From NCBI GenBank assembly GCA_964619365.1, contig CAZUDQ010000004.1, positions 3,963 to 67,962 of the forward strand: 64,000 nt of DNA. Reading direction: 5' to 3'. Positions 8,404 to 51,140 of the stretch are shown here, one piece after another. The notes under the pieces are model-generated. The model was not told where the DNA came from, ran no database searches, and saw only the letters and a list, made by a program, of their open reading frames with translations. Within the stretch, counting starts at the first letter, position 1. The number at the start of each line of letters is the position of its first letter. Source of the stretch: an uncultured archaeon (GTDB lineage: Archaea; Altiarchaeota; Altiarchaeia; JAFGQM01). The translations under genes were made by a program, and so were the position numbers.

Positions 8404-9432
8404 ATGGCAAATAATGTCTCTTGTCCCCCAAAGAAAACTTCTAAGGAAGTCCTTATGCGAAGCGAAGGGGAAACAGATCCGGCTTACGGATGTTCACCCG
8501 ATAAACGCCCAGTAGAAGAACTTTTGTCAAAAGGAGTGATAAATCTCGATAAGCCAAGAGGTCCAAGTTCCCACCAGGTTTCTTCATGGGTAAAATCCAT
8601 GCTAGGGCAAAAAACCGGCCATGGCGGAACTCTTGATCCTGCAGTATCCGGCTCTCTTCCGGTCTTTTTAGGCTCTGCAACACGCCTTGCAGATATGATG
8701 CTTCTTTCAACAAAAGAATACGTCTGTTTGATGCGACTTCATAAACATGTCAATGAAAAAGAGATTCGCAATGTATTCTCACTGCTCCAGGGGAATTTAT
8801 GGCAAAAGCCGCCTTTAAAGTGCGCTGTTAAGCGTGAATTAAGGCAAAGAAACGTATATTCGGTTGAGATTCTTGAGATAATGAACAATGACGTCCTTTT
8901 TAAGATTTCATGCCAGGCAGGAACATACATAAGAAAATATTGTAATGATTTCGGCTTTATAACAGGAACTGGCGCACATATGCAGGAGCTAAGGAGAGTG
9001 AAAAGCGGGCCGTTTAAGGAAGACACAAATTTAGTAACCCTCCAAGACATAAAGGATGCCTACGTCTTTTGGAAAGACGGCGGGGAAGACAAGTTCATAA
9101 AGCGATGCATACTGCCAATGGAATATGCTGCTGCAGATATACCAAAGATTTGGATACGCGACTCTGCAGTTGATGCGCTTTGCCACGGCTCAGACTTGGC
9201 CGCACCAGGCGTTGTTAAACTCAATAAATTTGGCGTAGAAAAAACAGTTGCCATACTGTCCTTAAAAGACGAGCTTGTGGCAATCGGGCAATCACTTGAG
9301 GCAACAGAAGATATCGTGCGCCTAAAAAACGGACTTGTAGTTAAGACAAGTAAGGTGTTTATGGAACCAGGCACTTATCCTAAATTATGGAAAAAAGAAG
9401 AGAGCGAGACTGAAGCGCAAAATGGAGAATGA
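8404..9432 (+). CDS. cbf5: H/ACA RNA-guided pseudouridine synthase Cbf5 (TruB family)
   Basis: DKPRGPSSHQV, GHGGTLDP, TKEYV, AGTYIR, HMQELRR, C-terminal PUA domain. Confidence 0.96.
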   Translation: MANNVSCPPKKTSKEVLMRSEGETDPAYGCSPDKRPVEELLSKGVINLDKPRGPSSHQVSSWVKSMLGQKTGHGGTLDPAVSGSLPVFLGSATRLADMMLLSTKEYVCLMRLHKHVNEKEIRNVFSLLQGNLWQKPPLKCAVKRELRQRNVYSVEILEIMNNDVLFKISCQAGTYIRKYCNDFGFITGTGAHMQELRRVKSGPFKEDTNLVTLQDIKDAYVFWKDGGEDKFIKRCILPMEYAAADIPKIWIRDSAVDALCHGSDLAAPGVVKLNKFGVEKTVAILSLKDELVAIGQSLEATEDIVRLKNGLVVKTSKVFMEPGTYPKLWKKEESETEAQNGE

Positions 9433-10027
9433 TCATTATTTTACAAAAAATCCGACATCAGTCGAACATCCACGGACAATAAGCATTTTTGTCAACGGTA
9501 AAAATATTCTGTTTAAGACTTCATCGTCAATGTTTTCTCCAAAAAGAATAGACCCTGCAACACTTCTCCTAATCGAAAACATGCAGCTTCCGGAGGGAAC
9601 TCCACGAGTCCTTGATATGGGGGCAGGATACGGTCCAATAGGCATCTGTGCTGCAATAGGCCGCCCCTCAGCAGAGATTGTAATGGCTGAGATAAACGAG
9701 CGGGCAAGCAGGCTTGCAAAAGAAAATGTAATTGCCGCAAGAACGACTAATGTTACTGTTGTTGAATCGGATTTTTTCTCGAATATAACAGGCAGTTTCG
9801 ATGTCATACTTTCAAATCCGCCGATTGCAATAGGCATGAAGTGCATTGAAGAGTTTATAAGAGAATCCAAGACTAGGTTAAACCAGGATGGCAGTTTACA
9901 GCTCGTCGCACGCCACAATAAAGGTGGTTCGCGTATAGCGGGAATGATGGAAAATGTTTTTGGAAACTGCGATACAATAACAAAAGGCGGAGGGTTTAGG
10001 GTTTATATAGCATACAATTCAAAATAA
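9422..10027 (+). CDS. Class I SAM-dependent methyltransferase (RsmC/MTS-like)
   Basis: HYF N-terminus, FSPKRIDPAT, LDMGAGYG, NPP, GGFRV. Confidence 0.85.
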   Translation: MENDHYFTKNPTSVEHPRTISIFVNGKNILFKTSSSMFSPKRIDPATLLLIENMQLPEGTPRVLDMGAGYGPIGICAAIGRPSAEIVMAEINERASRLAKENVIAARTTNVTVVESDFFSNITGSFDVILSNPPIAIGMKCIEEFIRESKTRLNQDGSLQLVARHNKGGSRIAGMMENVFGNCDTITKGGGFRVYIAYNSK

Positions 10028-21939: not shown

Positions 21940-23613
21940 CTATTCGTGGGCAAAATAGCAGACGACATTGCCGTCTTCAGCGCTTTTTACACGGCAAAAG
22001 CCAAAGCGCACAAACTGTATCATATCGCCATGTTCTAAGTGTCGACAGTCTTTTTCACAGAAGCCTGCGACTTTTCCGTCAGGCCCAAGCACCTCACATC
22101 CAAGCGAGTCCTCGGGAAGCCACTGGAGTATCGGGACTTTTGTGTTTTTCTCTTCAAGGTAGCGTGCCATAAGCGGACGCACTTCATCTATTTGAATGTT
22201 ACAGAAGTTCTTTAGACGCAAGACATCCCCCTTTTTAAGGTTTTTGGTATCGTCTTTTGCCACTAGTAACCTGGTCATGCCTTCAGAATCACGTTTGATT
22301 TCAATATCACGGAAGCCCCGCTGCGGGTAGTTTGGATGAAGCGGTATTTTTATGACATCAGCATCCGAGGGCACACCCTTTATCCAAACCTCAACAGGCT
22401 TAGGCACAAAGAAATAGCGGTTTGCCCTATCCTCGATTAATTTTCTGTTTTCAGCATAGAGATTCTGCCACTCAAATTTTGAGTCGGTGTCCCCAATACC
22501 GATTGCCTTCATGACACTCCGTATTGCTTCAGGTTCAATTCCCCTTCTTTTAAGCGCTCTAAGCGTTCCGAGATGAGGGTCCGCCCAGCTGGAGTATTCA
22601 CCGCTGTCAATACCCTTTTTCATGGCAGAAGTCGAAAGATTGACTCCTTCAATTGAAAGAAGTCCATTGTGTATGAATTCAGGAGGCTTCCAAGCAAAAT
22701 AATCATAGATGTAAAGTTGTCTTTGGGTGTTTATTATGTGGTCCTTTCCACGCAGGACATGAGTCAGCCCTGAGAGATAATCATCAATTGCAACAGAAAA
22801 ACTCATTAAAGGGTAAACGTCCCAGTCGCTTCCTGTTAATGGGTGCCTGTCTGTTGAGACCCTCATTATTGGAAAATCACGCATAGCCGGGTTCTTGTGC
22901 GCCATATCAGTTTTAAGATTAAGGACAAGGTTTGTGTCTCCCTCAATCATTTTATTCCAGCGCGAAATGTTCTCTTCAATACTATTGCCCCTACACGGAC
23001 AGTTCTTTTTTGCGTCCTTAAAAGCTCTGAACTTTTCTTGCCCGCAGGAACAGGAATAAGCATGACCTTCCTTTATCAATCTAAGGGCGAAGTCGCGGTA
23101 GACAGCAAGCCTCCTGCTTTGAGTGATGATTTCATCAATCTCAACGCCAAGCCATTTTAAATCCTCCTCAATCATACGATATGCGTCCTTTTCAACGCGC
23201 TTTGGGTCGGTATCCTCAATTCTTAAAATAAGCTTTCCACCATACTTTTTCTTGTATTCATCATTAAGGACTGCGGTTCTTGCGTGGCCTATGTGAAGCG
23301 GTCCTGATGGATTTGGGGCAAAGCGCAAGACTACTTCACCGTTTACATTAGGGAGCTCCGTAATCCTACCTCTTTTCTTTTCTTTTTCTTCCGGCGTTCC
23401 GTAATGAGCGAGTTCTTTTTCGACTTCCTCTTTTGATAATGAATTTACTTCGGCAATCACGTCCTTAACAGCCTTTATAGCCTTACTTGTATCCTTCCTA
23501 TACTCTGGAAACTCCCCCAAAAGTTTTCCAAGGACGTTTTTTTCTTGCGCCGAGCCGTAGCTTGCCGCATTCTCGACTGCGTATTTTTTTGCTATCTTGT
23601 AGAGGTCGTCCAT
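21940..23613 (-). CDS. gltX: Glutamyl-tRNA synthetase (archaeal type)
   Basis: RFAPNPSGPLHIGH, LRIEDTDP, THVLRGKDH, QFVRFGF. Confidence 0.97.
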   Translation of the reverse strand: MDDLYKIAKKYAVENAASYGSAQEKNVLGKLLGEFPEYRKDTSKAIKAVKDVIAEVNSLSKEEVEKELAHYGTPEEKEKKRGRITELPNVNGEVVLRFAPNPSGPLHIGHARTAVLNDEYKKKYGGKLILRIEDTDPKRVEKDAYRMIEEDLKWLGVEIDEIITQSRRLAVYRDFALRLIKEGHAYSCSCGQEKFRAFKDAKKNCPCRGNSIEENISRWNKMIEGDTNLVLNLKTDMAHKNPAMRDFPIMRVSTDRHPLTGSDWDVYPLMSFSVAIDDYLSGLTHVLRGKDHIINTQRQLYIYDYFAWKPPEFIHNGLLSIEGVNLSTSAMKKGIDSGEYSSWADPHLGTLRALKRRGIEPEAIRSVMKAIGIGDTDSKFEWQNLYAENRKLIEDRANRYFFVPKPVEVWIKGVPSDADVIKIPLHPNYPQRGFRDIEIKRDSEGMTRLLVAKDDTKNLKKGDVLRLKNFCNIQIDEVRPLMARYLEEKNTKVPILQWLPEDSLGCEVLGPDGKVAGFCEKDCRHLEHGDMIQFVRFGFCRVKSAEDGNVVCYFAHE

Positions 23614-23614
23614 T

Positions 23615-26527
23615 TTATTTTGAGTAAGATATGAAAATCTGTGCTCCTTCTATTTCAGTTTTGCTCTTTAAATCCTTTGGGTCGATTTTATCAAGTTCTA
23701 TTGCACTCGCGCCTGTTGCCTGTGCTATCTCAGTTTCTCTTTTCTTTATTAGTTTAAGCAGTTTCTCATCTCCGTCAAACCTAAGAACGATTTTTTCTGA
23801 AACATCAAGCCCCTCCTTTTTGCGCATGACTTGTATCTGCCTTAACAAGTCGCGGAGCATACCCTCTTGTATCGCCTCAGGACTCCTGATTTTTGATATC
23901 ATGATGCGCCCGCTTGAGAACTCCTTTATCACCGGGGCGTTTGGTTCCTTGTTTGAGAATGCGACCTCATTTACATTTGCCATATTTTCAATTACTTCCC
24001 TTACCGTCTCTAGCTTCTCTTTCGTGTCAACTGTAAGTGCATCAAGCGGCCAGCGCAGTTTGATTCCAGCTTCATCGCGCGCGGCATTACTTGCCTCGAC
24101 GATTTCTTTTGCAAATTGCATCTCGCGCTCAAGTGAAGCATCAATCTCAAAGTTGATTTCCGGCCAGCCTGATAAGAAAACAGAGTCGCCCCCCTCTAAG
24201 TCGCGGTGTATGTATTCAGCAATAAACGGCGCAAAAGGTGCAATCATGCGCGCAGTCTTTGCTATAGCATACCACAATGTCGCAATTGCTGCGTCTTTGT
24301 CTTCTCCAGTGGCTGAGACCCAGGTCCTGTCCCTTATTATCTTGATATACCAGCGGGACAAGTCGTTTAATATGAAGTCTTCAATAGCTTTTGAGGCGCC
24401 GAATGGAAGGCAGGCATCAAACCCATCTTTTACCAATTTCTCAACAGAAGCCAGTCTTGATAAAATCCACTTGTCCTCTGGTTTAAGGAAGTCCCGTAAT
24501 CCTTCTATATCGACTACGCCCGCTTCAGAATAAGTCTTTGCAAATTGGTAGCAGTTCCAAAGGGTGTTCATAAGCCGGAAAGTTATCTTGACATCGTCTG
24601 CGTTGAATTTTAATTTTTCCCAAACTTCTGATTCTGAAACAAGGTAGAATCTTGTGATATCCGCGCCATACTTTTCCATGACCTCGTAAGGCGAAGTGAC
24701 GTTGTTTAAGGACTTACTCATCTTGTCCCCTTTCTTATCAAGCACCCATTCGTTCATGAGGATTGTCTTAAACGGAGTTTTCCCAAACATGATTATGCCT
24801 TCAAGCATAAGGGTGTAAAACCATCCCCTAGTTTGGTCAAGACCTTCTGTTATAAAGTCCATTGGGAAGAACTTGGTAAAAGGTTCTTTTTCCTTAGGAT
24901 AATTCATCCCGGCCCAAGTTGCAGCACCAGATTCAAACCAGATATCTGTTATATCAGGTACCCGAGTCATTTCTTTTTGGCAATCAGGACAGCTAAGTTT
25001 TATCTTATTGGTATAAGGAACATGTAAATCTGGCTCACCCTCAGGCATCTCTATTGCCTTTTCCTTTAACTCTTCAAAGGAACCGATTACTTCACGCGCG
25101 CCGCAGGAACATTCCCAAATTGGGAGAGGTATCCCCCAAAACCTCTGGCGGGATATGCACCAGTCGCGTGCTTCTTTTATCCAATTGGAAAAGCGCTTTT
25201 CACCTGCCCAGTCCGGATTCCATGTAACTTTCTTGTTCTCAGAAATCATCAAATCTTTGACTTTTCCGACATTGATGAACCACTGGGGCGAGGCTCGTGT
25301 AATAATTGGGGTCTTGCAGCGCCAGCAATGCGCGCAGCGGTGCGTTATCTTTTGCTTTCCGGCAATGGCACCGCGATTTTCTAATTCTTCGATTACAATA
25401 GGATTTGCTTTCTTGACATAAACGCCCTCAAGCTTCCCGCCTTCCTTTGTGTAACATCCGTTCTCTCCAACTGGCGAAAATGGCGGAAGACCGTATTTCA
25501 TACCAACAGAATAATCGTCAAGCCCGTGGCCGGGTGCCGTGTGTACACAACCCGTCCCGTCTTCAAGAGTTACAAAATCCCCCAGAAGGATACTGTGTGT
25601 GGCAGGAGCCTCTTTTTCAATCTCCTTATTTTCAGGAATCCAGTCAGGAAGTATAAACTCGTATCCTACCCCCTCAAGCTCTTTTCCTTGCTTTATACTG
25701 TCTTCAAGAATCTCATAATCCCCATCTTCTATCTCACAAGCTTCCATTACCTGCGGGACTAACTCCTTTGCCATAAGCCACTTTTCATCGCGCGGAACTG
25801 AGACCAGACAATATTCATATTTTGGATTAAGTGTAACACCAAGGTTTGAAGGAAGCGTCCAAGGTGTTGTTGTCCAGATTAGGACAAATTCACCAGGCCT
25901 CTCCTTAAGCGGGAACTTGACATAAACAGAGTCATCAGTCACGTCACGGTATTCGTCTGTTGCCTCGTAGCCGGCAAGCGCCGTCTGGCAGCGCGGACAC
26001 CAGGCTGTTGATGCCTTGCCCTTGTAAAGAAGACCATCCTCCTCACATTTCTTGAAAAACGCCCAGGACGAACTTATATAACTGTTATCAAGAGTCTTAT
26101 AAGGATGCTCAAAATCCCAGTGCATGCCAAAACGTTTGTAGAACTCAGTAAATACGTCAACTGTTTCAAGTGCGCGGGTACGGCAGATGTCAATAAATTT
26201 TTCTGCGCCATAATCCCAGATATCTTCTTTTCGCTTAAGACCAAGCTCCTCTTCTACCTTGATTTCAATTGGAAGTCCATGGCAGTCATAACCCGGCTGA
26301 AGATTTACGTCTTTTCCTAGCATCACCTGATACTTTAAAATCGGGTCGCGAATAGCGCGCGTCCTTGCGTGGCCCATATGGGGGTTCCCATTCATATATG
26401 GAGGTCCGTCTAAGAAGAAGAACTTCTCACCTGCTTCATTTGCTTTTTTTATCTTCTCAAAAAGCCCTAATTTATCCCAGTACTCCGAAATCTCCTTTTC
26501 GATTTCAAGGGGTCTAAACGGTTCCAC
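23615..26527 (-). CDS. ileS: Isoleucyl-tRNA synthetase (GTG start)
   Basis: DGPPYMNGNPHMGH, GYDCHGLPIE, WTTTPWTLPSN, GTGCVHTAPGHG, DWCISRQRFWG, EGLDQTRGWF, KMSKS. Confidence 0.97.
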   Translation of the reverse strand: MEPFRPLEIEKEISEYWDKLGLFEKIKKANEAGEKFFFLDGPPYMNGNPHMGHARTRAIRDPILKYQVMLGKDVNLQPGYDCHGLPIEIKVEEELGLKRKEDIWDYGAEKFIDICRTRALETVDVFTEFYKRFGMHWDFEHPYKTLDNSYISSSWAFFKKCEEDGLLYKGKASTAWCPRCQTALAGYEATDEYRDVTDDSVYVKFPLKERPGEFVLIWTTTPWTLPSNLGVTLNPKYEYCLVSVPRDEKWLMAKELVPQVMEACEIEDGDYEILEDSIKQGKELEGVGYEFILPDWIPENKEIEKEAPATHSILLGDFVTLEDGTGCVHTAPGHGLDDYSVGMKYGLPPFSPVGENGCYTKEGGKLEGVYVKKANPIVIEELENRGAIAGKQKITHRCAHCWRCKTPIITRASPQWFINVGKVKDLMISENKKVTWNPDWAGEKRFSNWIKEARDWCISRQRFWGIPLPIWECSCGAREVIGSFEELKEKAIEMPEGEPDLHVPYTNKIKLSCPDCQKEMTRVPDITDIWFESGAATWAGMNYPKEKEPFTKFFPMDFITEGLDQTRGWFYTLMLEGIIMFGKTPFKTILMNEWVLDKKGDKMSKSLNNVTSPYEVMEKYGADITRFYLVSESEVWEKLKFNADDVKITFRLMNTLWNCYQFAKTYSEAGVVDIEGLRDFLKPEDKWILSRLASVEKLVKDGFDACLPFGASKAIEDFILNDLSRWYIKIIRDRTWVSATGEDKDAAIATLWYAIAKTARMIAPFAPFIAEYIHRDLEGGDSVFLSGWPEINFEIDASLEREMQFAKEIVEASNAARDEAGIKLRWPLDALTVDTKEKLETVREVIENMANVNEVAFSNKEPNAPVIKEFSSGRIMISKIRSPEAIQEGMLRDLLRQIQVMRKKEGLDVSEKIVLRFDGDEKLLKLIKKRETEIAQATGASAIELDKIDPKDLKSKTEIEGAQIFISYSK

Positions 26528-26652
26528 GATTCGTTCCTTAGATATTCTTTAGATAATAGAGAATCTTAAGGGTTATTTTTGGCGATTATTGGATAAAAGT
26601 TAAAATAGCAAGGTAGGGGTGCTCTTATCTAGTGCAATAGCTACCCCCTTTT

Positions 26653-26864
26653 AAAAATAAGATGGGCCTAATGGGATGTTAAGGTGGATGCAACGCTATG
26701 GCATATGACCTTAACAGAGATTAGGACCATCGGGCATAAGCTAAGAAAAAAGAAGATGAGCCTAATGGGACCTTGAGGTGGATGCATTGCCAATACCCAT
26801 GACCTTAACAGATATTAGGGCCATTGCTACTAAGGGTGTAAAAAATAAGATGGGCCTAATGGGA
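26653..26864 (-). repeat. Tandem 94-bp-period repeats sharing the tRNA-Ile 3' end and T-tract; two 69-nt hairpin units (26662-26730, 26756-26824)
   Basis: AAAAATAAGATGGGCCTAATGGGA-like segment at 26653, 26746 and 26840; the ATG core recurs at 26662, 26756 and 26850. Confidence 0.92.
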
Positions 26865-26995
26865 TTTGAACCCATGACATCTGGCTAGCTCAGAGCTTTC
26901 GACTCCATTCTTGGGAATCTCAAAACAGACGCGTGGATTTACCACACGCATGCTCGTATAAGACCAGCGCTCTAACCAAGCTGAGCTATAGGCCC
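26851..26995 (-). tRNA. tRNA-Ile (anticodon TAT) with a 70-nt intron at 37/38 (intron 26887-26956)
   Basis: GGGCCTA/TAGGCCC acceptor, GCTC/GAGC D-stem, CTGGT-CT TAT A^..^A-GCCAG, ATGGG TTCAAAT CCCAT, A73; BHB motif with GAGC/GCTC stem, CTTA/TGAG central helix and two 3-nt bulges. Confidence 0.93.
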
Positions 26996-27013
26996 ACAAA
27001 AATGCCTAATATC

Positions 27014-27160
27014 AAAAAGTAAGATTTTCTTATTTTCCAACGTTTGCTTATCTTGGGTTGCATAGCAACCCGACCATACTCCTCCGGTATCTCGGAGAAA
27101 GTAAGATTTTCTTACTTTTTGTTTTGCTCATCCCTCGGATATCCGAGGCTTCTTATTTTG
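27014..27160. repeat. Cluster of five palindromes/inverted repeats between tRNA-Ile and the COG1361/ABC operon
   Basis: AAAGTAAGA-TTT-TCTTA(T/C)TTT twice (27016, 27098), GGGTTGC-ATA-GCAACCC (27055), CTCCG-GTATCT-CGGAG (27082), CCTCGGATATCCGAGG (27133). Confidence 0.85.
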
Positions 27161-40844: not shown

Positions 40845-41948
40845 ATGGAAAATAAAACTCTTGAGGATATTTTCCAGCTCAAAGAATATTCTCTTAGTTC
40901 TAAGGAAAAGGAAGAAGTTCTCTTGCCAATCATAAAAGAGGGCGTCAAAAGAGCCAGGAGAAACCCCCAAATAGACTCTTTTTTAGAAAAGGAATCATTT
41001 GATTCTGAAAAAATATCTTCCTTAAGTCAGATTCCTGGGGTACCTATACAGATGTTTAAGGATATTGACCTTTCGACTTGTGACAAAAAGGATATAATCC
41101 AGATACTAAAATCCAGTGGGACAACATCATCAGAACAAAGCAAAGTGCCGCTAAACCAAGAAACCTTAATCAATCAGGGGCGAGCTTTCCAGAGCAGTAT
41201 CGTGAATTATTTTGGTTCTGAAAAACGCGTATTTCTTGTAATAGACCACAAAGGCATAATTGACCCAAAGCGTGAGATAACTTCACGGACAGCAATAGTC
41301 CGTGCGCCCTTAAGATATGCCAAAGAGACATATTTTCTCTTAAAAGAAACGGAGGATGGGAGATTAGTCTTGGACATGGACGTAATCAACGAGGTAATCA
41401 GAAAACACTCAAATGATGATATAATAGCATTCGGGTTTACTTACATTGTATGGAGCGTTTTTTATAAACAGGCAAAAGATGCAGGCATTTCCTTTAAATT
41501 TCCAAATCTCAAGCTTTTCCATGCGGGCGGTTGGAAAAAGCTCTCAGAAGAAAAAGTATCAAAAGAGGCGTTCTCAAAAGAGCTTGCGAGACTTTTTGGA
41601 ATATCCTATAAGGAAGTTTGTGACTTTTACGGAATGGCAGAGCAAAACGGGGTAATCTTTATTGATTGTAAAGAAGGCAATAAACACGTGCCAAATTTTG
41701 CCAAGGTTATAATCCGGGACACACAGACATTAGAACCTGTACAAAAAGGCCAGACTGGGATAATTGAGATAATGAGTGCCCTTGGGACAAGTTATTATTC
41801 TCAGGCCATCCTGACAGAGGATTTGGGTGAATACCTTGGCGATGATGATTGTCCATGCGGTCGGCATGGCGAATACTTTAGATTCAAAGGAAGGCTCAAA
41901 AAAGCTCCTCTTCGTGGATGTGGAGATACCTTCAAGGAGAAAAAATAA
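40845..41948 (+). CDS. luxE: LuxE-like acyl-protein synthetase
   Basis: SSGTTS, FGFTY, HAGGWKK, DFYGMAEQ, ILTEDLG, GR....LRGC. Confidence 0.88.
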   Translation: MENKTLEDIFQLKEYSLSSKEKEEVLLPIIKEGVKRARRNPQIDSFLEKESFDSEKISSLSQIPGVPIQMFKDIDLSTCDKKDIIQILKSSGTTSSEQSKVPLNQETLINQGRAFQSSIVNYFGSEKRVFLVIDHKGIIDPKREITSRTAIVRAPLRYAKETYFLLKETEDGRLVLDMDVINEVIRKHSNDDIIAFGFTYIVWSVFYKQAKDAGISFKFPNLKLFHAGGWKKLSEEKVSKEAFSKELARLFGISYKEVCDFYGMAEQNGVIFIDCKEGNKHVPNFAKVIIRDTQTLEPVQKGQTGIIEIMSALGTSYYSQAILTEDLGEYLGDDDCPCGRHGEYFRFKGRLKKAPLRGCGDTFKEKK

Positions 41949-43222
41949 TAAACTGTTATTTTCTTTCAGGGAAAAAAGTAGAGAAACAAATTACAGATTT
42001 TAGCGAAATAGAAATTGTCTTAGAAAAGAATCGAAAAGACCTTTATAATATGGGTCTTGAAGGTGTCATAAAAATTCTCTCAGAACTATCAAAACATATT
42101 CTTTCCAACCAAGAACTTCTTCAGATAGGATACATGGAATATCTTTCAGATTGGTTAAGCGAAAAAAACCTTAGAGAAATTTGTAACAATAATTATGGCG
42201 TTAAAAATCCTTTTGAGCAAAGCCAAGATTTAAATGGTCTAAAAATTATTGCCGCACCAAGAGGTATTGCTAGTCATTGGGTCGCCGAGAACATACCGAC
42301 TATTGCAATTTTCTCACTTGTCCAGGGACTTCTTTCACTTAATGCCAATGTTATGAAAGTTCCAAAAAATTCAGTACACCCAATCTGTTTAATTCTGGAA
42401 ATACTCTCCGGAATTGAACTTGAGTTTAATGGAAAGAAACTTTTAGGTTCAGACCTGTCAAAAAATGTGGTTATCACAACATTTCCCAGTTCAGAGACTT
42501 TCGCAGGGAACTCACTTTCACAAATAGCTGATGTAAAGCTAATTTGGGGTGGCAAAGAAGCAGTGAGCTCAATTACCCAAATGCCACAAAAAGAGCATTG
42601 CGAGATTCTAACATTCGGACCAAAATACTCATTTGGCGTTTATGCTAAGGATGCAATAGAATCAAATCTTGAAGAGAATCTAAAAGGTTCTGCCTTAGAC
42701 ATCGTACTTTTTAATCAGATGGCATGCTCATCCCCACATGTCTTATTTTTTGAAAAGAGCAAGTATCCTTTGGATGAAATAGCCAACAAGCTAGCTGAGG
42801 CATTTGACTCCACACCTAAAAAATATTTTATGCCCCTAAATGATGAACTTGTATCAAAAATTATGAATAAACGGGGCGAATATCTTCTTGACAAAAAGAA
42901 GGTTATAAAAAAATCAAAGACTTTGGAATGGACAATTCTACTAGATAACAAGCTCTCCTTAGAAGAGCCGATAGCAGGTCGTTGCATTTTTCTAAAGGAA
43001 ATAAACTCCATTTTGGATGTAATCCCACTAATCACGCATAAAGTTCAAACAATAAGTCTGGCGTGCCTAGATGACAAATTAACCAACAAATTCTTTAAGT
43101 GCGCAGCTTATGTGGGAGTAAGTCGTATAACTCCTCCCGGAAAGATGCTAGATTTCTATTCGCCATGGGATGGCATGATGCAAGTTTCAAGACTCGTCAG
43201 ATGGGTAAGTCTAAAAAATTAG
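41918..43222 (+). CDS. luxC: LuxC-like acyl-CoA reductase
   Basis: APRG...HW.AEN.P, QGLLSLNANVMK, WGG.EAV, FGPKYS, NQMACSSPH, RI..PG.M, PWDG. Confidence 0.88.
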   Translation: MWRYLQGEKIINCYFLSGKKVEKQITDFSEIEIVLEKNRKDLYNMGLEGVIKILSELSKHILSNQELLQIGYMEYLSDWLSEKNLREICNNNYGVKNPFEQSQDLNGLKIIAAPRGIASHWVAENIPTIAIFSLVQGLLSLNANVMKVPKNSVHPICLILEILSGIELEFNGKKLLGSDLSKNVVITTFPSSETFAGNSLSQIADVKLIWGGKEAVSSITQMPQKEHCEILTFGPKYSFGVYAKDAIESNLEENLKGSALDIVLFNQMACSSPHVLFFEKSKYPLDEIANKLAEAFDSTPKKYFMPLNDELVSKIMNKRGEYLLDKKKVIKKSKTLEWTILLDNKLSLEEPIAGRCIFLKEINSILDVIPLITHKVQTISLACLDDKLTNKFFKCAAYVGVSRITPPGKMLDFYSPWDGMMQVSRLVRWVSLKN

Positions 43223-43271: not shown

Positions 43272-46200
43272 ATGTCAATTAATGATAAATTATTACCTTT
43301 ATTAGAGAAAATCCATCTTGCAGGGTTTTTTGAGGAAAAGAATATCCCGCCCATTGCGTTTCCAATAGGAATGATTGTTCTTATCGGAATTATCGCATTT
43401 TTGTTATTTTCTGGCGGGTCATCTAATGTCATTTGTGGTGACGCTTTATGCGACTCTACAGAAAACTGTACAACTTGCCCTGAGGACTGTGGCAATTGCG
43501 CTGACAGTAAAAAAGAGTTTGAGGGCTTGCCTGCAACAAAAGAAGTAAGTGTAATTTTGACGGGCGCCCCCATACAATCCACACTTAGTGTTTCACTTCA
43601 GGATGATTCTGGAACGACTTTACAAGGCAAGACGGGTAAATCCTCTGAATTCACCTTCCAGATTCCAACTACCGCAAACGTTGTAAGGGCCATAGTAAAA
43701 AACCTAGATACTGGCAATGCAATCAATTCAGATTTTTTCTCTATCGAAGTTGGTGACCCCACAATTCCCGTAATGATTCCATCTGATTTTTTTGACCAGG
43801 GTCATGAAGAAACGGCAACGCTTATTGTGTCACTAAAAAACGCAAAAACGATGACGCCCATATCTGGCAAGATTTCAATTGTGCTACCCAGCGGCTCTTC
43901 TTATAGTGTGGTGGAGACTAAGCAGTCTACAGGCGGGGTTGCAAGTTTTTCTTTAGAACCAGGCACATATGCAGTCATTACAGAAGCAAGTGCTTACTCA
44001 AGTTATGACAACAGGAATAGCCCAGTTACCTTAAGCTCGGGTAGGACGCTTTCAATAACTGCCCCTATGGAACCTGTGACAAAGACAAGAACTATAAACT
44101 TTTGTGCAGGTCAAAACGCCCCGATTATCGCGGTGTATACTAGTTCAGGAACCTTACTCTCAGAACTTACAACAGATTCTTTTGGATGTGCCGAGTTTGA
44201 AATGGACGAGGGAACAACGGGTTATGCCAGAGCAATGGCCTTAGACCCCTCCTGCAGCTCATCTGATGCTATGTTTTCAGAAGATTCCTCAAACTCATTA
44301 GTAATCAGTGTAGTATGTGGAGACATGGTTTCGCAAATACGTGCAGAAGTCATAGGGCTTAACAATGAAGTGCTCACGGAAAACGCTACAGTAAACCTTT
44401 TTTATGAAGACGGAACACGCATAAGCGGAAGCGGGACGGCAGGCGCACTGATGCCCAACGGAACTGCTACAGAATATGTCCATGTCGACTCCACAGACAC
44501 AGTATATTTTGTCGTTACAGGAGTTAATGGATACCTTGATTTTACCTCGAGAAAATACGAAGTGCTTCAGGGAGAAGCTAAGACTGTAAAACTTAATCTC
44601 ATTGTCGCGCCAGAACCCAAACCCGAGATGGAATTCAGGGAGCTATATTTTCCAACAACGGCAATCGCAGGAAAAGAGTTTAAGGTCAGTTTCCAAAAAG
44701 CGCTTTGCAATGGAGAAGATGTCACGGCAACAGAAAACTTCAAGGTTTCTTTTACAGGAGGTAATTGCAGCATACTTGGGACAACGATAACTTATCTACC
44801 CTCAGTCTCTCATTTAGGAGAACAGACAATAGAGATATATAATAATGATAATGCAGACTGCATTGCACTAATAAAAAAGAACATAAGTGTTTTTGAAAGT
44901 GGTGAGAACCCCTTTGAAGTAATACCTTATGCCATCACGGGGTTAGACGCCCCAGTGACAGTGCCCTTTGCAATAACCTTTAACGGAACTCCAATACTAA
45001 ATGATTTTGATTACATATTAAAAGCAAAGTACAGTGAGGGTGGGATTGCCCTTCCCGAAGAACCTTTATTGTCTGAAGCAGATGAATATTTATATACAAA
45101 AATTGATTCACCCTTTACTGGAGATCATGCTTTGGAGATAAATCTTAGCAAAGTAGTAGGCGATGTCTATTACGCAGGCTCTTTTGAGATAAGTAACATC
45201 AGAAGCTATCCCAGAAACCAAAAGATAAAAATAGAGAGTACAGTTAGCCCCAGGTTCCCTTATCCAACGGAAGGATTTTATGTTGCAATCAAATTACAAG
45301 CGGGATCATGGATAATAAAAGGCTTGGAAAACGTTTATGCAGAATTTTACAGTACGACTCAAAAAATGTACTGGAACCCGGCATCACAGATTTATTCTAC
45401 CTCGTTTGAAGCACCCCTTAGCGAGGGCATATTTCCAGTGACCTTTAAGGTGGGTGGGGCGACTCTTGCTGAAGAGAACGTTTATGTCGCAAATACCGCC
45501 CTTGAACGCTCTTCTACGTGTGAAATAGCAAACTGTGCGGATATAAATGATGTCAGAGCATGCGTATACTCACACAACAAGCAGTCCATGCACACAACGC
45601 GTGAAGTGATAGGTTGTTTTGAAAATGGGTGGGGCACAGTACTTTCATCTGAAGAGTTTTCACTACTTCATTGTACGGAGGACAGTGCCTCAAAAGGTGA
45701 TTGGAACAACAACTGCTATCTAGACACGACAGGGGAACTTAGCGACCGTGCGATATTGTCTGAAGCCTTGTCACGACTGTCTGAAGATGAGCTTTACAGT
45801 TATCTGGGCTGTGGGGATATGGACAATGACCTTGATGTGGATAAAGACGATTTAGTATGCCTTACAAACGTTGCTTCAGGCAAATGGTTTGGTGACACAG
45901 GTACTAGTTCAAATTCTGATATATGTTCCTCACAATTAATGGGTGGGTTTTGTTTTGATATCAAAACAAGCTCTGCAATCCCCGGTGATTTTAATAATGA
46001 CAAGGATATCGATTCAGATGATATAGAACTAATGCAGGACATAATAAGGGCTGTTAGAAGTGGAGTCACACCACCTTCAAAATTACTTGCTTTTGCAGAT
46101 TTTAATCAAGATAGGACAATAGGGCAAATCGATCTCGAGTGTCTTGAGAAATTTAAAAACGTCAATTTTGATTCCTATGAGGCATACGGACAACAGGTGT

Positions 46201-48062
46201 CGTTTATACCTTCAGAGTGTTTGGCTGTCTTTAACTTGGAATGTGGGAACAAAGGTGATATTAATGATGATGGTAAGATAGATGAAATAGACTTCACTAT
46301 AATAAAACTAGCAGCAAATGGCCTTATATCAGAAGATGTAGTCGGAATTGAGTGTCTGGATGTGGATATAGATTCAAAAATAACTAAAGATGATGTTACG
46401 TGTCTAAGTGAATATTTCAACGGAGATATGGATGAGTGGATGCTTTGCCTTAATTGTGAAGAAAACTTACCTCCTGAGGCCTGGAGCACTCTTGAGATTT
46501 GCAATGACGGATATGACAACAACTGTGATAACCTAAAAGATTTAGAGGACCCGATGTGTTCCTGCATAAATTCGACTTCATGTGATATGGTTTACGACAC
46601 AGATCGCGGAGTTAATGTTGGTGTTGAAGATGATAAGTACGAAGTATGTCGCAGCGTCTCATGGGATGATCATAAGGGGTACACATGGTATGAATTTCCG
46701 TTCCCTCCAGAATGTGAAAAGGATAATGAGTGTGAAACTTATTCTTGTGATGGGAATACCTGGCAATGCTCTACAGGCGAATGGTACAAGATAGCTCCAA
46801 CCGATACTCTGCCCGGTGAGACATGTGGAGATGGCTGGGACAATGATTGTTCTGGCGGCGATGCAGCCTGTCCAAGCAGAGGCGGCGATGAGGTGCCGGA
46901 TGGATGTCCCTTTATATACGCATATGACGGCAAGAATTATGTCCTAGAGGCTGCAGGGTTTTCACTCGCATTAGCCAAGCCATTAGAAGGTTATAGCTAT
47001 TCTGCCTTGCCGGATATGGCCCCAACAGAAAAAGGAACGTTAAACGTTTCGATAGCCCAGCAGCTTCCAGAGAAAACTCGTGTAAACACCATGCGCCTTT
47101 TTGCCATAAATCATTTGACTGGACTTGAGATAGTCCCTGGGACACAAGGCGAGTTTTATACAATTTTAAATCCCGCCTCACCAGTCTCATGTCACGCAGT
47201 CCTTGCAGACGAGAATTGTCTATCCGGAGTTTTGGAGCCCGAAGGCAAAACATATCTTTATAACTTGAGTACGCGTCCGTACCCATATGATTTTGATAAG
47301 AGTTTTGAATACATGGAACTTACTTTTGACTTGCCCGAAGGCGCCAGTGAAGATGCAGTCATTATTTTAAAAGGAAAAGTTCAACACATGATGGTTTTTG
47401 CAACTTGGGCCATGTTTGAGAATATGGGTAATGGAAACCTTGGCACCTTTGCAGTATCCTTTTTTACGGCCCTGCCCAGCTTCATTGACCGTAATGGTAA
47501 AGTCAAAGTAGACGTAGAACGCAACGGCAACTGGGAATTTGTAGGACATCAAATACTTGCACATTCAATAGCTGGCGACGCCGGGAAGATAGCAATACCC
47601 GTAAAGATTAACAAAGATTCAGACGAGCTTAAAATCAGGCTAGGGTTTAGACAAGGTGGGTTTGAAATAGATTATGTCGCTCTTGACGCGTCAGGAAAAA
47701 GTCCAATAGAAGTCGAGGAACTTCCAATGCTAAGTGCAAAGAAAAATGATGGGAATGATGTCTTGGATGAGCTTCTAACAGACGATGACAAGTATGAGAT
47801 CATAACACAAGGCGAGTGGATAGAAACTGAATTTGCACTCCCCGCACGTAATTCTGATTTACCAGAAACTTCATATGTTGTTTGGCCAAAAGGATATTTT
47901 ACCTTTGAAATAGATTCGCAGTTTACTGTAGCACCCATGGACGTGTTTAGAACAGTTTTTGACGACAGTCTGATGCATGAATACGTGGCTAAGAACTATT
48001 TGCCAAATATTGAAGCTTTCAGGGACGTTTACTACTCAGTAGACATTGGAATAAACGACTAA
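43272..48062 (+). CDS. Giant (1596 aa) membrane-anchored surface protein with Cys-rich repeats and dockerin-like EF-hand loops
   Basis: N-terminal TM; CGD.LCD..ENC.TCPEDC; GD.N.D..ID..D loops; EICNDG.DNNC motifs; GCPFIY.YDG domain. Confidence 0.8.
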   Translation: MSINDKLLPLLEKIHLAGFFEEKNIPPIAFPIGMIVLIGIIAFLLFSGGSSNVICGDALCDSTENCTTCPEDCGNCADSKKEFEGLPATKEVSVILTGAPIQSTLSVSLQDDSGTTLQGKTGKSSEFTFQIPTTANVVRAIVKNLDTGNAINSDFFSIEVGDPTIPVMIPSDFFDQGHEETATLIVSLKNAKTMTPISGKISIVLPSGSSYSVVETKQSTGGVASFSLEPGTYAVITEASAYSSYDNRNSPVTLSSGRTLSITAPMEPVTKTRTINFCAGQNAPIIAVYTSSGTLLSELTTDSFGCAEFEMDEGTTGYARAMALDPSCSSSDAMFSEDSSNSLVISVVCGDMVSQIRAEVIGLNNEVLTENATVNLFYEDGTRISGSGTAGALMPNGTATEYVHVDSTDTVYFVVTGVNGYLDFTSRKYEVLQGEAKTVKLNLIVAPEPKPEMEFRELYFPTTAIAGKEFKVSFQKALCNGEDVTATENFKVSFTGGNCSILGTTITYLPSVSHLGEQTIEIYNNDNADCIALIKKNISVFESGENPFEVIPYAITGLDAPVTVPFAITFNGTPILNDFDYILKAKYSEGGIALPEEPLLSEADEYLYTKIDSPFTGDHALEINLSKVVGDVYYAGSFEISNIRSYPRNQKIKIESTVSPRFPYPTEGFYVAIKLQAGSWIIKGLENVYAEFYSTTQKMYWNPASQIYSTSFEAPLSEGIFPVTFKVGGATLAEENVYVANTALERSSTCEIANCADINDVRACVYSHNKQSMHTTREVIGCFENGWGTVLSSEEFSLLHCTEDSASKGDWNNNCYLDTTGELSDRAILSEALSRLSEDELYSYLGCGDMDNDLDVDKDDLVCLTNVASGKWFGDTGTSSNSDICSSQLMGGFCFDIKTSSAIPGDFNNDKDIDSDDIELMQDIIRAVRSGVTPPSKLLAFADFNQDRTIGQIDLECLEKFKNVNFDSYEAYGQQVSFIPSECLAVFNLECGNKGDINDDGKIDEIDFTIIKLAANGLISEDVVGIECLDVDIDSKITKDDVTCLSEYFNGDMDEWMLCLNCEENLPPEAWSTLEICNDGYDNNCDNLKDLEDPMCSCINSTSCDMVYDTDRGVNVGVEDDKYEVCRSVSWDDHKGYTWYEFPFPPECEKDNECETYSCDGNTWQCSTGEWYKIAPTDTLPGETCGDGWDNDCSGGDAACPSRGGDEVPDGCPFIYAYDGKNYVLEAAGFSLALAKPLEGYSYSALPDMAPTEKGTLNVSIAQQLPEKTRVNTMRLFAINHLTGLEIVPGTQGEFYTILNPASPVSCHAVLADENCLSGVLEPEGKTYLYNLSTRPYPYDFDKSFEYMELTFDLPEGASEDAVIILKGKVQHMMVFATWAMFENMGNGNLGTFAVSFFTALPSFIDRNGKVKVDVERNGNWEFVGHQILAHSIAGDAGKIAIPVKINKDSDELKIRLGFRQGGFEIDYVALDASGKSPIEVEELPMLSAKKNDGNDVLDELLTDDDKYEIITQGEWIETEFALPARNSDLPETSYVVWPKGYFTFEIDSQFTVAPMDVFRTVFDDSLMHEYVAKNYLPNIEAFRDVYYSVDIGIND

Positions 48063-50413
48063 ATCTTTTTTATCTTAAGATTCTTGATTCTCCCGGTACC
48101 CTTGATATCCTCGATAAGTGGGGTAAGGAGCTCTGGTTCCTTTACTTCTATTTCAAGTTCGTCTAGCTCTGCCCCAAGACTTAGGTTGTTATCGCTCTTG
48201 TACTTCCGGATATAGTCAATCGCATCAATCATAGCTTCACAAGCTGCTTTTGCAGAGTCATCAATATTTGACTCATCAACTTCAGGGTATTTCTCCTGAT
48301 GGATTGAATACTTACCGAAAAGTTCAGCGTATAATTCTTCAGTTATGTGTGGCGCGATAGGAGCAAGGAGCCTGAGAGATTTTTCAAGTGCGACATAAAG
48401 CGTATACTGCGCCGCACGCCGCGACTCTTCACCATATTCCTCAGGTTTATAAAGCCTGTATTTTACCATCTCGAGGTAGTAGTCGGCAAGGTCGTGCCAG
48501 ATAAATGTTCGAATCCCTTGGAGAGGGACATTAAACGTTTTATTGTCAAAACCACGCCTTGCTTCGCGCGCTACTTCTTCAATCCGCGAAAGTATCCATT
48601 TATCGGTCATGCGAAGCTCTGGGACATCTGCCGTCGGGTCGAAATCCTCAAGATGCCCGGAGATGAATCTTGATACATTCCAGAGTTTGGTAAGGAACCT
48701 TCCTGAGTGTTCGCATTCATCCCATGAGAACTGGAAGTCTTCGCCTAAGGAACCTGATGCTGCCCACTGACGGATTGCATCCGCAGAGTATTTCTCAAGG
48801 ACGGTTTCAGGCTCGATGACATTGCCTAAGGACTTACTCATCTTCTTGCCATCAGGCCCTCCGACCATGCCGTTAATCATAAGCTCCTTAAAGCAGGGCT
48901 TGCCAGTTAAAATAAGATTGCGAAATATCGTGTAAAATGTCCAGGTCCTGATTATTTCATAGCCTTGTGAGCGCAATGATGCAGGATAAGTCTTACTAAA
49001 GAACTCTTCATCCTCATGCCATTTTGTTATTGTAAGTGGTGACATTGACGAATCAACCCAGCAGTCACAGACGTCAATCTCTCCGTGGGCAACACCGCCG
49101 CACTCGCAGTCTTTTGTCGTCCCCCGCGGGTCTACCGGAAGTTCGTCTATTGTAGCAGGAATCGCTTTTTTGCACCTGTCACAAACCCAAAATGGGATGG
49201 GTGTTCCAAAGACTCTTTGACGTGAGATTATCCAGTCCCAGTCCATAGCCTCAGTCCAGTCTTTCAAGCGACCTAACATGTACTCCGGGCGCCAGTCCAT
49301 AGTGTCTGCCGCGTCTTCAATATCTTTAAGAGAATCCTTGATTTTTATGAACCACTGTTCGGTCGGAAGGAGTTCAATCGGGTTGTTACACGAGCTCCTT
49401 TCAGTATGGCATAAGACGTTGTGTTGGTATTCCTCAACTTTCCTTAGACAGCCAAGCTTTTCAAGTTCTTCAGCGACATGTTCGCGCGCGTCTTTTAGCT
49501 TCATTCCAGCAAGCATACCGCACGCTTCAGTCATCTTGCCATATGGGGTTATAGCGATTATAACGGGGAGCTTGTATTTCTTCTGCCAGCGGATGTCTTG
49601 CTCATCACCAAAAGTACAAAGATAGACAACACCCGTTCCAAACTCCATATCGACGTCTTCATCAGCAATGATGGGTACGCGGTTGCCAAATATTGGCATT
49701 GTCGCTTCCTTTCCGACAAAGCTTTTGTAGCGAGAGTCTTTGGGGTTAACAAGAACTGCAACGCATGCAGGCATCATCTCTGGACGACTTGTTCCGATTG
49801 TGAATTTGTGCCCACCTTCAACTGCGATATCAATATGATAAAGTTTGCCGGTGCCTTCAATATGACCTACTTCAGCCTTTGCTAGAGCAGTCCCACATTT
49901 TGTGCACCAGAGCACCGGATGCTTCTCACGGAAAAGGAGATCTTTTTCATAGAAATCAAGCAGGCTCTTTTGAACGCGGAGTTTGTAGGAATCATCCATG
50001 GTTCTATACGAATGTTCCCAGTCCGTGCTGTAACCAAGGCTCTTAAACTGAGATTTCATGCGAGTGATAGCTTTTTCAGTCCAGTCGCGGCAGGCAAGAA
50101 GGAACTCGTCCCTGTTTTGCTTCTTTACCTTCATTTTCTTTTCAACGGCAAGCTCTGTTGGAAGGCCGTGACAGTCAAAGCCCTGTGGGAGAAGGACAGA
50201 GTGCCCTGTCATGCGCTTATACCTTGCGACAAAGTCAATCCATGCGTGATTATAAACGTGACCTAAGTGAAGGCTTCCTGAGGTAAACGGCGGAGGCGTA
50301 TCGATAGAATACACAGGAAGCTCGCTTTTGACATCAAACTTATAGATGCCGTCAGCTTCCCACTTATCCTGCCACTTCTTCTCAATCTCCGTCCCGAACC
50401 TTTTTGGAAGCAT
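48059..50413 (-). CDS. valS: Valyl-tRNA synthetase (start moved to ATG 50413)
   Basis: IDTPPPFTSGSLHLGH, GFDCHGLPTE, SRPEM, WDWIISRQR.FGTPIP, QGYEIIRTW, KMSKS. Confidence 0.97.
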   Translation of the reverse strand: MLPKRFGTEIEKKWQDKWEADGIYKFDVKSELPVYSIDTPPPFTSGSLHLGHVYNHAWIDFVARYKRMTGHSVLLPQGFDCHGLPTELAVEKKMKVKKQNRDEFLLACRDWTEKAITRMKSQFKSLGYSTDWEHSYRTMDDSYKLRVQKSLLDFYEKDLLFREKHPVLWCTKCGTALAKAEVGHIEGTGKLYHIDIAVEGGHKFTIGTSRPEMMPACVAVLVNPKDSRYKSFVGKEATMPIFGNRVPIIADEDVDMEFGTGVVYLCTFGDEQDIRWQKKYKLPVIIAITPYGKMTEACGMLAGMKLKDAREHVAEELEKLGCLRKVEEYQHNVLCHTERSSCNNPIELLPTEQWFIKIKDSLKDIEDAADTMDWRPEYMLGRLKDWTEAMDWDWIISRQRVFGTPIPFWVCDRCKKAIPATIDELPVDPRGTTKDCECGGVAHGEIDVCDCWVDSSMSPLTITKWHEDEEFFSKTYPASLRSQGYEIIRTWTFYTIFRNLILTGKPCFKELMINGMVGGPDGKKMSKSLGNVIEPETVLEKYSADAIRQWAASGSLGEDFQFSWDECEHSGRFLTKLWNVSRFISGHLEDFDPTADVPELRMTDKWILSRIEEVAREARRGFDNKTFNVPLQGIRTFIWHDLADYYLEMVKYRLYKPEEYGEESRRAAQYTLYVALEKSLRLLAPIAPHITEELYAELFGKYSIHQEKYPEVDESNIDDSAKAACEAMIDAIDYIRKYKSDNNLSLGAELDELEIEVKEPELLTPLIEDIKGTGRIKNLKIKKI

Positions 50414-50540
50414 TTTAATAGTTAGAATCAATCCTTGCATGTACAAGAAAAGAAATCGTAAATTTTGAACCTTTGAATTAAAATACTGTTTTCCCGCTAA
50501 GCAGGTTTTATATAACAAAACATAATCTAAACCGCTAAAA

Positions 50541-51140
50541 ATGGAAAAGAACATTATGATTGTAATGGGAGCCGTTGTGATTGTGGCAGTAGTAATTGCT
50601 GCAGTTTTACTAATGGGTTCTGGAACGACACCAACACAGGATAAGCCGATACTAATAGAGAAAACGACACCAGCTGAGAAGCTGACTCCAACAACTACAC
50701 CAGAAAAAAACGAGTCGGACGACAATATCCCAGAAGAGCCTCAGACAGTTGAAGGATGCAAAAAATTAGGTGAAGTCAACCTAACAAATGCGTGCCTTAG
50801 TGTTGTTGCAATGAAAGAAAAAAACGCGACAATATGTGAGATGGTAAGCACTGATTGGCAGTCTGAGTGTTATCAGAACGTGGCCCACATGTTTAAGGAT
50901 AACATTACAAAGTGTAAAGGAATGACTGACAATACAACAGAGTCCTGTCTTGAACTTCTTGCAATGAAGACAAAAAACCCATATATCTGCACTGAAATCT
51001 CAGAGAAATGGCAAAACGAGTGTTACAATAATGTTGCAGTCGCATCAAAAGACGCTATAATCTGCGGGGAAGTCAAAGGTGACAACTGGCTTATGAATTA
51101 TTGCAAGGCATACATTGCAAACGAAACTAAGTCTAGTTAA
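50541..51140 (+). CDS. Membrane-anchored protein with about four Cys-rich (C...C..VA....IC) repeats
   Basis: N-terminal TM, Thr/Pro linker, about 25-aa Cys repeats. Confidence 0.75.
   Translation: MEKNIMIVMGAVVIVAVVIAAVLLMGSGTTPTQDKPILIEKTTPAEKLTPTTTPEKNESDDNIPEEPQTVEGCKKLGEVNLTNACLSVVAMKEKNATICEMVSTDWQSECYQNVAHMFKDNITKCKGMTDNTTESCLELLAMKTKNPYICTEISEKWQNECYNNVAVASKDAIICGEVKGDNWLMNYCKAYIANETKSS

Follow-up and report, generated by a model that had tools for sequence, protein, structure and literature searches.

The 64,000-nucleotide (nt) stretch of DNA analyzed here, hereafter the window, is part of contig CAZUDQ010000004.1 from an uncultured archaeon and carries on its minus strand an intron-bearing gene for an isoleucine transfer RNA (tRNA) with the anticodon UAU, tRNA-Ile(UAU). 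All coordinates given below are positions in the window. The pre-tRNA gene spans 26851..26995 (145 nt, for a mature tRNA of 75 nt), as defined by a full-length match to the Rfam family RF00005 and by 7 orthologues from the same clade. Direct reading of the sequence divides it into a 39-nt 5' exon (26957..26995; tRNA positions 1-37), a 70-nt intron at the canonical 37/38 position (26887..26956), and a 36-nt 3' exon (26851..26886; positions 38-73), the last also placed by the RF00005 alignment. The anticodon TAT lies at 26960..26958, the plus-strand base at 26960 being A. Directly after the tRNA come two tandem 94-nt units, here called element E, followed on this strand by ileS (23615..26527) as the next gene, which begins 323 nt downstream of the tRNA and encodes isoleucyl-tRNA synthetase (IleRS).

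In a comparison with RF00005 (threshold 29 bits), the minus strand of 26851-26995 scored 58.5 bits with an E value of 4.5e-10, and the whole model was matched (positions 1-71 of 71). ARAGORN did not call the gene with default settings because of the intron. The nucleotides looked for as signs of an Ile-type body, namely G1-C72, C4-G69, U12-A23, A37, A38, and A73, are all found, and the C29-G41 pair of the Escherichia coli Ile identity set is G29-C41 in the window tRNA. This tRNA body is common to at least 120 UAU tRNAs. Position 34 is T, where the tRNA-Ile2(CAU)/agmatidine class needs C34. Logan contigs from two salt-lake metagenome runs, covering 26802-27114 and 26400-26906, show no difference from the window, and T34 is therefore not peculiar to one assembly.

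The intron is framed by a strict bulge-helix-bulge (BHB) motif of the hBHBh' class, with two 3-nt bulges, a 4-bp central helix between them, and helices on both flanks. Read from its 5' end, it consists of the outer strand GAGC, two hairpins, the outer strand GCUC, the tetranucleotide UGAG (26889-26892), and a final CU. A U31·G39 wobble occurs in the anticodon stem (CUGGU/GCCAG), the outer BHB helix is GAGC/GCUC, and the two bulges consist of U36 A37|C and C U|A38. In the central helix, anticodon-loop residues pair with the intron UGAG (26892..26889) as C32-G, U33-A, U34·G, and A35-U. An earlier reading of the DNA, made from the sequence alone and without database searches (the sequence-only reading), had described 26851-26995 as a tRNA-Ile(UAU) with an Ile-type body, a 70-nt 37/38 intron, a clean BHB, and a U34·G pair, and this description proved correct in every detail.

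Comparison with 6 clade orthologues provides evolutionary evidence for this architecture. When the cloverleaf, the BHB, and the two intron hairpins are imposed on the alignment, 96.7% of the cells are paired, compared with 21-46% for slid controls, and none of 500 shuffles reached the same value. Nine pairs changed on both sides, and all three helices of the hBHBh' motif are 100% paired. The exons are nearly invariant, their only paired change being the compensatory replacement of A7-U66 by G7-C66. The two intron hairpins differ in sequence among the orthologues, yet they contain 5 and 3 pairs with compensatory changes (columns 47-69 and 77-95 of alignment A1). Such conservation hints that the intron hairpins may have a role beyond presenting the BHB to the splicing enzyme.

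The linkage between the tRNA and the gene for its cognate synthetase is a second shared feature of the clade. The ileS product has 970 residues and is identified by TIGR00392 (871.5 bits) and the Pfam domains tRNA-synt_1, Anticodon_1, and DUF5915; translation from a GTG start yields VEPFRPLEIE, similar to the MEPFKPLELE of its homologues. It is followed after a 1-nt gap by gltX (21940..23613, minus strand), encoding an archaeal glutamyl-tRNA synthetase (NF003169, 685.9 bits), and the contiguous ileS-gltX pair is kept across the clade, as is the longer order tRNA-ileS-gltX-DUF3096-L7Ae-S28e-L24e-NDK. The tRNA is linked to ileS in 6 of 8 species-level contexts, including, besides the window, those of the metagenome loci L117, L242/L243, L244, L247/L248, and L249; the two genes are unlinked in L121/L057 and L246. 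The distance from the tRNA to the ileS ATG is 16 nt in L243/L242 and 86 nt in L244, the spacing reaches about 0.9 kb in L117 and 2.7 kb in L247/L248, where toxin-antitoxin genes intervene, and in L249 a 5.3-kb integrated element separates the two genes. By alignment, the C-terminal domain of IleRS is of the eukaryotic/archaeal type. Within it, EAIQEGMLRDLLRQIQVMRKK can be aligned with the human and yeast enzymes; the aligned region corresponds to yeast residues 981-1015, including Arg999, which in yeast hydrogen-bonds a carbonyl of N34 (PMC11685878). From this ungapped match, R902 of the window IleRS would be the counterpart of yeast Arg999.

The host can be placed approximately. Among the other products encoded in the window are SecY, S5, Cbf5, ValRS, deoxyhypusine synthase, and an S-layer protein. 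The DNA has a G+C content of 42% and is an archaeal chromosome. The nearest matches of the IleRS, with 60-67% identity, are encoded on metagenome contigs, and one of these matches (62%) bears the label Candidatus Altiarchaeota; the next-best groups are Undinarchaeota (52%) and Micrarchaeota (44%). Scanning GTDB with IleRS peptides returned one species representative only, at 66% identity, and a search for contigs encoding the window IleRS itself found none. These comparisons suggest that the host belongs to a small, poorly sampled salt-lake clade near Altiarchaeota and DPANN, whose nearest named relatives carry the label Altiarchaeota (DPANN cluster 1).

Codon usage, counted in 36 open reading frames (ORFs) of the window, bears out the earlier remark that ATA codons are common. 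Isoleucine is encoded by 534 ATA codons (44.8% of 1192), 389 ATT, and 269 ATC, and ATA, at 33.9 per 1000 codons, is more frequent than ATG (24.6 per 1000). Since ATA is the commonest isoleucine codon, the tRNA that decodes AUA must be a major tRNA.

The distribution of this tRNA extends well beyond the clade. GTDB species genomes were scanned with TAGCTCAGNNNGGTNAGAGCGCTGGTCTYATA, in which Y stands for position 34, and at least 120 matches were obtained. All 120 matches listed have T34, and nearly all of them are metagenome-assembled genomes (MAGs) of DPANN archaea, with labels that include Woese-, Pace-, Micr-, Nano-, Aenigmat-, and Iainarchaeota. The corresponding GTDB scan for the C34 arm GGTNAGAGCGCTGGTCTCATA gave at least 120 matches as well, and those listed are bacterial tRNAs of Campylobacterota, which are uninformative for archaea. 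In the salt-lake runs, other contigs match the 5' exon through the anticodon and then continue into different introns, with summed depths of 150-480. Among archaea described in the literature, ARMAN-2, -4, and -5 possess tRNA-Ile(UAU) and lack both tRNA-Ile(CAU) and TiaS (PMC3239211), and Nanoarchaeum equitans and Korarchaeum cryptofilum have tRNA-Ile(UAU) on record (PMC6000648, PMC8450103). The characterization of UAU as rare or exceptional thus holds for cultured archaea and fails for the sampled archaeal diversity, given the GTDB matches and the published ARMAN cases. The same tRNA occurs in well over 100 DPANN species, so that the supposed exception is a major archaeal decoding mode, a point to be considered when tRNAs are annotated and when inferences are drawn from codons in MAGs.

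Taken together, these data make it likely that 26851-26995 is a functional gene for the AUA-reading tRNA-Ile(UAU), the "Ile3" of tRNAscan-SE, of an uncultured salt-lake archaeon. The precursor would be transcribed from the minus strand, and anticodon-loop residues 32-35 would pair with the 3' end of the intron to form the strict hBHBh' motif, whose two 3-nt bulges the splicing endonuclease would cut. After ligation of the exons, the 75-nt tRNA would be charged by the IleRS encoded directly downstream and would decode AUA, the most used isoleucine codon. By analogy with ARMAN, Nanoarchaeum, and Korarchaeum, the host probably lacks the TiaS/tRNA-Ile2(CAU) agmatidine system, and U34 is probably modified, or placed in a context that limits the reading of AUG.

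Several observations weigh against this reading or narrow its basis. The RNAalifold consensus prefers a pairing between the D arm and the 3' part of the intron over the BHB, and in the minimum free energy (MFE) fold of the precursor the D-arm segment UUAGAGC pairs with the intron segment GCUCUGA and no cloverleaf forms; since the thermodynamic fold prefers this pairing, the BHB would be the enzyme-relevant fold, not the MFE structure. The region was found in none of the RNA-seq runs, and the Logan support consists of contigs at about 4-5x depth, not of raw reads. The lineage label was drawn from a single marker, the IleRS, which shows 62% identity to that of one MAG with the name Altiarchaeota, and the view on tiaS and on a CAU tRNA-Ile2 is limited to 64 kb of this genome plus about 90 kb of relatives.

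Alternative explanations can be weighed against the same evidence. That T34 arose from faulty assembly or sequencing, or that the gene is a decaying pseudogene, is barely conceivable: the low coverage would allow for it, but the contigs from two runs are identical, the anticodon is common to 7 orthologues and at least 120 homologues, every helix is intact with compensatory changes present, and ATA is the top isoleucine codon. Another possibility is that the UAU tRNA coexists with a working TiaS/tRNA-Ile2(CAU) pair and serves as a supplementary AUA decoder. Nothing direct speaks for such coexistence, and only the window and short loci of relatives can be read; against it, every published archaeal UAU case is without both TiaS and a CAU tRNA-Ile2 (PMC3239211, PMC8450103). 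Family-profile scans of the 40 largest ORFs of the window gave no match to the TiaS family, a weak negative for 64 kb, and no search with a TiaS query was made. With intron search, a setting that gave many homologues wrong identities (Glu, Ser, and others), ARAGORN detected neither a CAU nor a GAU tRNA in about 1 Mb of loci around UAU genes, which is again weak as these loci are short, and a literature search combining TiaS with DPANN phylum names yielded nothing relevant. We consider coexistence unlikely. A mobile element, finally, could have brought in the gene or rebuilt its 3' part, in which case the sequence would report the history of that element and not of the host. The sister lineage L249 gives this idea substance. 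In its orthologous tRNA-Ile(UAU) gene (L249:4476-9941; ERZ27247703 k141_365310) sits a 5.3-kb element that begins with a tyrosine integrase gene (Phage_integrase) and is flanked by an exact 52-nt direct repeat (4572-4623 and 9890-9941), which spans the last 9 nt of the intron to 8 nt past the tRNA end; as a result of the insertion, a solitary 3' half of the tRNA stands 70 nt upstream of ileS. This tRNA is therefore an integration target in the clade, and the window itself has two partial copies of the tRNA 3' end downstream of the gene. Nevertheless, no integrase adjoins the tRNA in the window, the tRNA-ileS-gltX order is ancestral in the clade, and the 5' exon and anticodon lie outside the attachment (att) repeat, so that integration explains variation of the 3' exon and intron end but not the UAU anticodon; as an account of the gene, this origin is improbable.

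The remaining alternative was proposed by the sequence-only reading, which took the U34·G pair as the remnant of a C34-G pair in a former tRNA-Ile2(CAU) gene that had recently switched from C34 to U34. The proposal has some appeal because U34 faces G in the window and in all clade orthologues, C at position 34 would make the BHB pair Watson-Crick, and C to U is a single transition. The homologues argue against it. Among 106 intron-bearing homologues (11 of 117 homologues are intronless), U34 faces an intron A in 89, an intron G in 14, of which 7 are from this clade, and an intron U in 3, and G also stands opposite U33 in 22 of the 106. To our knowledge, U33 is invariant and never C in any tRNA. 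A G·U pair in the BHB helix is thus ordinary drift, and the exchange of A and G opposite position 34 points to a long-standing U, which pairs with both, where C would tolerate only G. The comparison of orthologous introns for C or U at position 34 brought no support either: the 7 orthologues with this clade's intron all have U34 and U34·G, the 120 listed matches of the Y34 pattern include no C34 variant, and a pattern specific to the clade, which joined its intron ends to either C or T at position 34, recovered 4 loci in GTDB and 2 in JGI metagenomes, with T34 in all. U34·G is invariant in 6 distinct orthologues while their intron hairpins drifted, and its fixation across species whose IleRS proteins are only 60-67% identical shows that it is old and stable. 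In L249 (IleRS P0006, 65% identical), the partner of U34 is A, and the intron's last 9 nt belong to the exchanged 52-nt att repeat; the partner of U34 can therefore be replaced by an integrating element, and its history can be uncoupled from that of the anticodon. The one traced archaeal case, that of Korarchaeum, derives from a duplicated tRNA-Ile(GAU) of the same genome and not from a CAU gene (PMC6000648). A recent switch is accordingly unsupported and in our judgment very improbable, and no new evolutionary case is opened by this locus. We infer that this clade has had the UAU anticodon for a long time, in common with DPANN archaea; descent from a CAU gene in the distant past is possible.

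Copies of the tRNA 3' end also lie downstream. Each of the two units of element E ends in a copy of the last 18-24 nt of the tRNA followed by a run of T. Unit 1 (26747..26840, minus strand) is degenerate, with an 18-nt copy of the tRNA end at 26753-26770 that has 1 mismatch, and it folds no better than shuffled sequences (z +1.3). Unit 2 (26653..26746, minus strand; 18-nt copy at 26659-26676) forms a hairpin with an MFE of -27.3 kcal/mol (z -5.2), and the 3' arm of this hairpin reproduces the tRNA 3' end and trailer exactly. In the outer helix, this copy of the tRNA 3' strand pairs with the 5' arm, to which it is complementary except for one conserved mismatch. Downstream of the tRNA, homologous hairpins occur in L117 (533-612), L014 (918-1052), and L247 (c. 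250-400). The outer helix tracks the host tRNA, having A-U or G-C at 7:66 as the tRNA does, three fully compensatory changes distinguish the inner 9-bp helix of the window from that of L014, and in L014 two extra hairpins give the element a cloverleaf-like shape.

The origin of element E was considered from several sides. When it is viewed as an att duplication, the direct repeat of the tRNA 3' part is present, and in the window only the 94-nt units, without an ORF or an integrase, lie between the copies. A second copy of the last 18 nt of the tRNA, 66-140 nt downstream, occurs at 16 of 119 DPANN tRNA-Ile(UAU) loci compared with 2-5 of 75 for other tRNAs (L001, L012, L015, L016 with two, L029, L040, L049, L063, L070, L073, L084, L107, and L110 are among the tRNA-Ile(UAU) loci with such a copy). 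In several of them the flank is repeated as well, which identifies tandem duplications rather than unique inserts. Because L249 has an integrated element, an integration scar is the simplest reading of element E. A scar does not account for the way the hairpin is conserved and covaries, and the element could be a functional mimic of the tRNA end. No credible Rfam match was found for it at E values up to 10. Other assignments were tried and rejected. Inspection by eye revealed no boxes of a C/D or H/ACA guide, and the internal loop is too small for a pseudouridylation pocket. A 20-codon frame exists, but the three fully compensatory stem changes, one of which would replace V by D, favor a nucleic-acid structure over a small ORF. 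A role as ileS leader is at odds with a distance to ileS of 125 nt to 2.7 kb and with the absence of the element where the tRNA abuts ileS. The 15 matches to viral contigs in IMG/VR were all chance matches without the flanking arms. As a separate observation at this site, the 2.7-kb block between the tRNA with element E and ileS in the species of L014 and L247 (L247/L248:1193-2953) carries ParE-like and MazE/PIN toxin-antitoxin genes, further evidence of mobile DNA collecting there.

Upstream of the tRNA, the region 27013..27121 contains two copies (27013-27037 and 27097-27121) of the palindrome AAAGTAAGATTTTCTTACTTT, for which 4 matches were counted compared with 0.03 expected. The nearer copy stops 17 nt before the tRNA start, further hairpins lie between and after the copies, and the region is possibly a promoter or regulatory region. 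Its part 27067-27120 is multi-copy and of high depth in salt-lake metagenomes, where it elsewhere directly abuts another tRNA gene (GGGCCTGTGGTCTAGCTCGG...; loose end at 27119), which suggests a promoter or regulatory element shared by tRNA genes. In its 64 kb, the window holds three class I aminoacyl-tRNA synthetase genes, since a ValRS-like gene (48059-50725) is present besides ileS and gltX. Next to a gene for a 1596-residue dockerin-repeat protein stands a LuxE/LuxC-like acyl-protein synthetase/acyl-CoA reductase pair (40845-43222 and 43272-48062), an unusual combination among archaea with small genomes.

The discrimination of AUA from AUG by a tRNA with U34 is a standing problem for Archaea, where published cases are few (Nanoarchaeum, Korarchaeum, and ARMAN). 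To these the present locus adds a lineage that uses AUA as its dominant isoleucine codon, and its tRNA must therefore be efficient and accurate. Two candidate enzymes are encoded in the window. Cbf5 is encoded at 8404-9432, and 59846-60922 on the plus strand encodes a tRNA-modification radical SAM protein of the MnmL/YtqA type (TIGR01212, 314 bits; cutoff 180); no tie of either to this tRNA was seen. The MnmL/YtqA family is linked to U34 modification in bacteria, and the window protein is a candidate, no more, for the U34 chemistry. A bolder scenario, which we regard as speculative and rather doubtful, would be that in this clade, and perhaps in most DPANN archaea, the agmatidine system has been fully replaced by an ileS-coupled, intron-bearing tRNA-Ile(UAU). 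Accuracy would then come from a U34 chemistry undescribed in Archaea, either a eukaryote-like pseudouridine (Ψ) at position 34 set while the intron pairs with the anticodon, or an xm5U-type modification, with Cbf5 and MnmL/YtqA as candidates, and element E might be a functional RNA of the module and not a scar. The kept adjacency of tRNA and ileS offers a compact pair to clone for biochemical tests.

Among known systems that read AUA without AUG, the archaeal tRNA-Ile2(CAU) modified to agmatidine by TiaS performs the same task (Ikeuchi 2010 and Mandal 2010, as cited in PMC6000648). The agmatidine system requires C34 and TiaS, whereas the gene studied here has U34 in every copy seen. The bacterial tRNA-Ile(UAU) of Mycoplasma mobile, Bifidobacterium, and Neorickettsia represents the same solution for AUA, reached there after loss of the enzyme that modifies C34 (PMC3575796, PMC8450103); in contrast to the window gene, it has no intron and works with a bacterial-type IleRS, and the enzyme lost was TilS instead of TiaS. 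The eukaryotic cytoplasmic tRNA-Ile(UAU), with its anticodon ΨAΨ, resembles the window tRNA in having UAU, an anticodon-adjacent intron that pairs with the anticodon, and a partner IleRS of the eukaryotic/archaeal type, and in yeast the intron is needed to pseudouridylate U34 and U36 (PMC11685878, PMC6582322). An intron-dependent modification is not universal among the archaeal homologues, since some of these have no intron.

The closest counterparts are archaeal. Nanoarchaeum equitans and Korarchaeum cryptofilum possess a tRNA-Ile3(UAU) that replaces tRNA-Ile2(CAU), and the Korarchaeum gene likewise bears an intron (PMC8450103, PMC6000648); they differ from the window gene in belonging to other lineages and, for Korarchaeum, in the origin traced to a tRNA-Ile(GAU) duplicate. 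In ARMAN-2, -4, and -5 (Micrarchaeota/Parvarchaeota), a DPANN tRNA-Ile with UAU has an intron at 37/38 in a strict hBHBh' motif, as in the window, and the ARMAN-2 intron was cut in vitro by that organism's own endonuclease (Fujishima et al. 2011, PMC3239211). The window anticodon arm AGAGCGCUGGUCUUAUA is identical to that of Micrarchaeota MAGs. The ARMAN-2 intron is only 25 nt long, whereas that of the window has 70 nt with two conserved hairpins in a gene linked to ileS, and ARMAN has been shown to have lost both TiaS and the CAU tRNA, whose absence is only probable in the window organism. In every feature that could be tested, the gene groups with its tRNA-Ile(UAU) counterparts in ARMAN, Nanoarchaeum, and Korarchaeum. 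Its clade is set apart by an intron of 60-70 nt that keeps two hairpins, by linkage to ileS, and by a hairpin conserved downstream of the tRNA.

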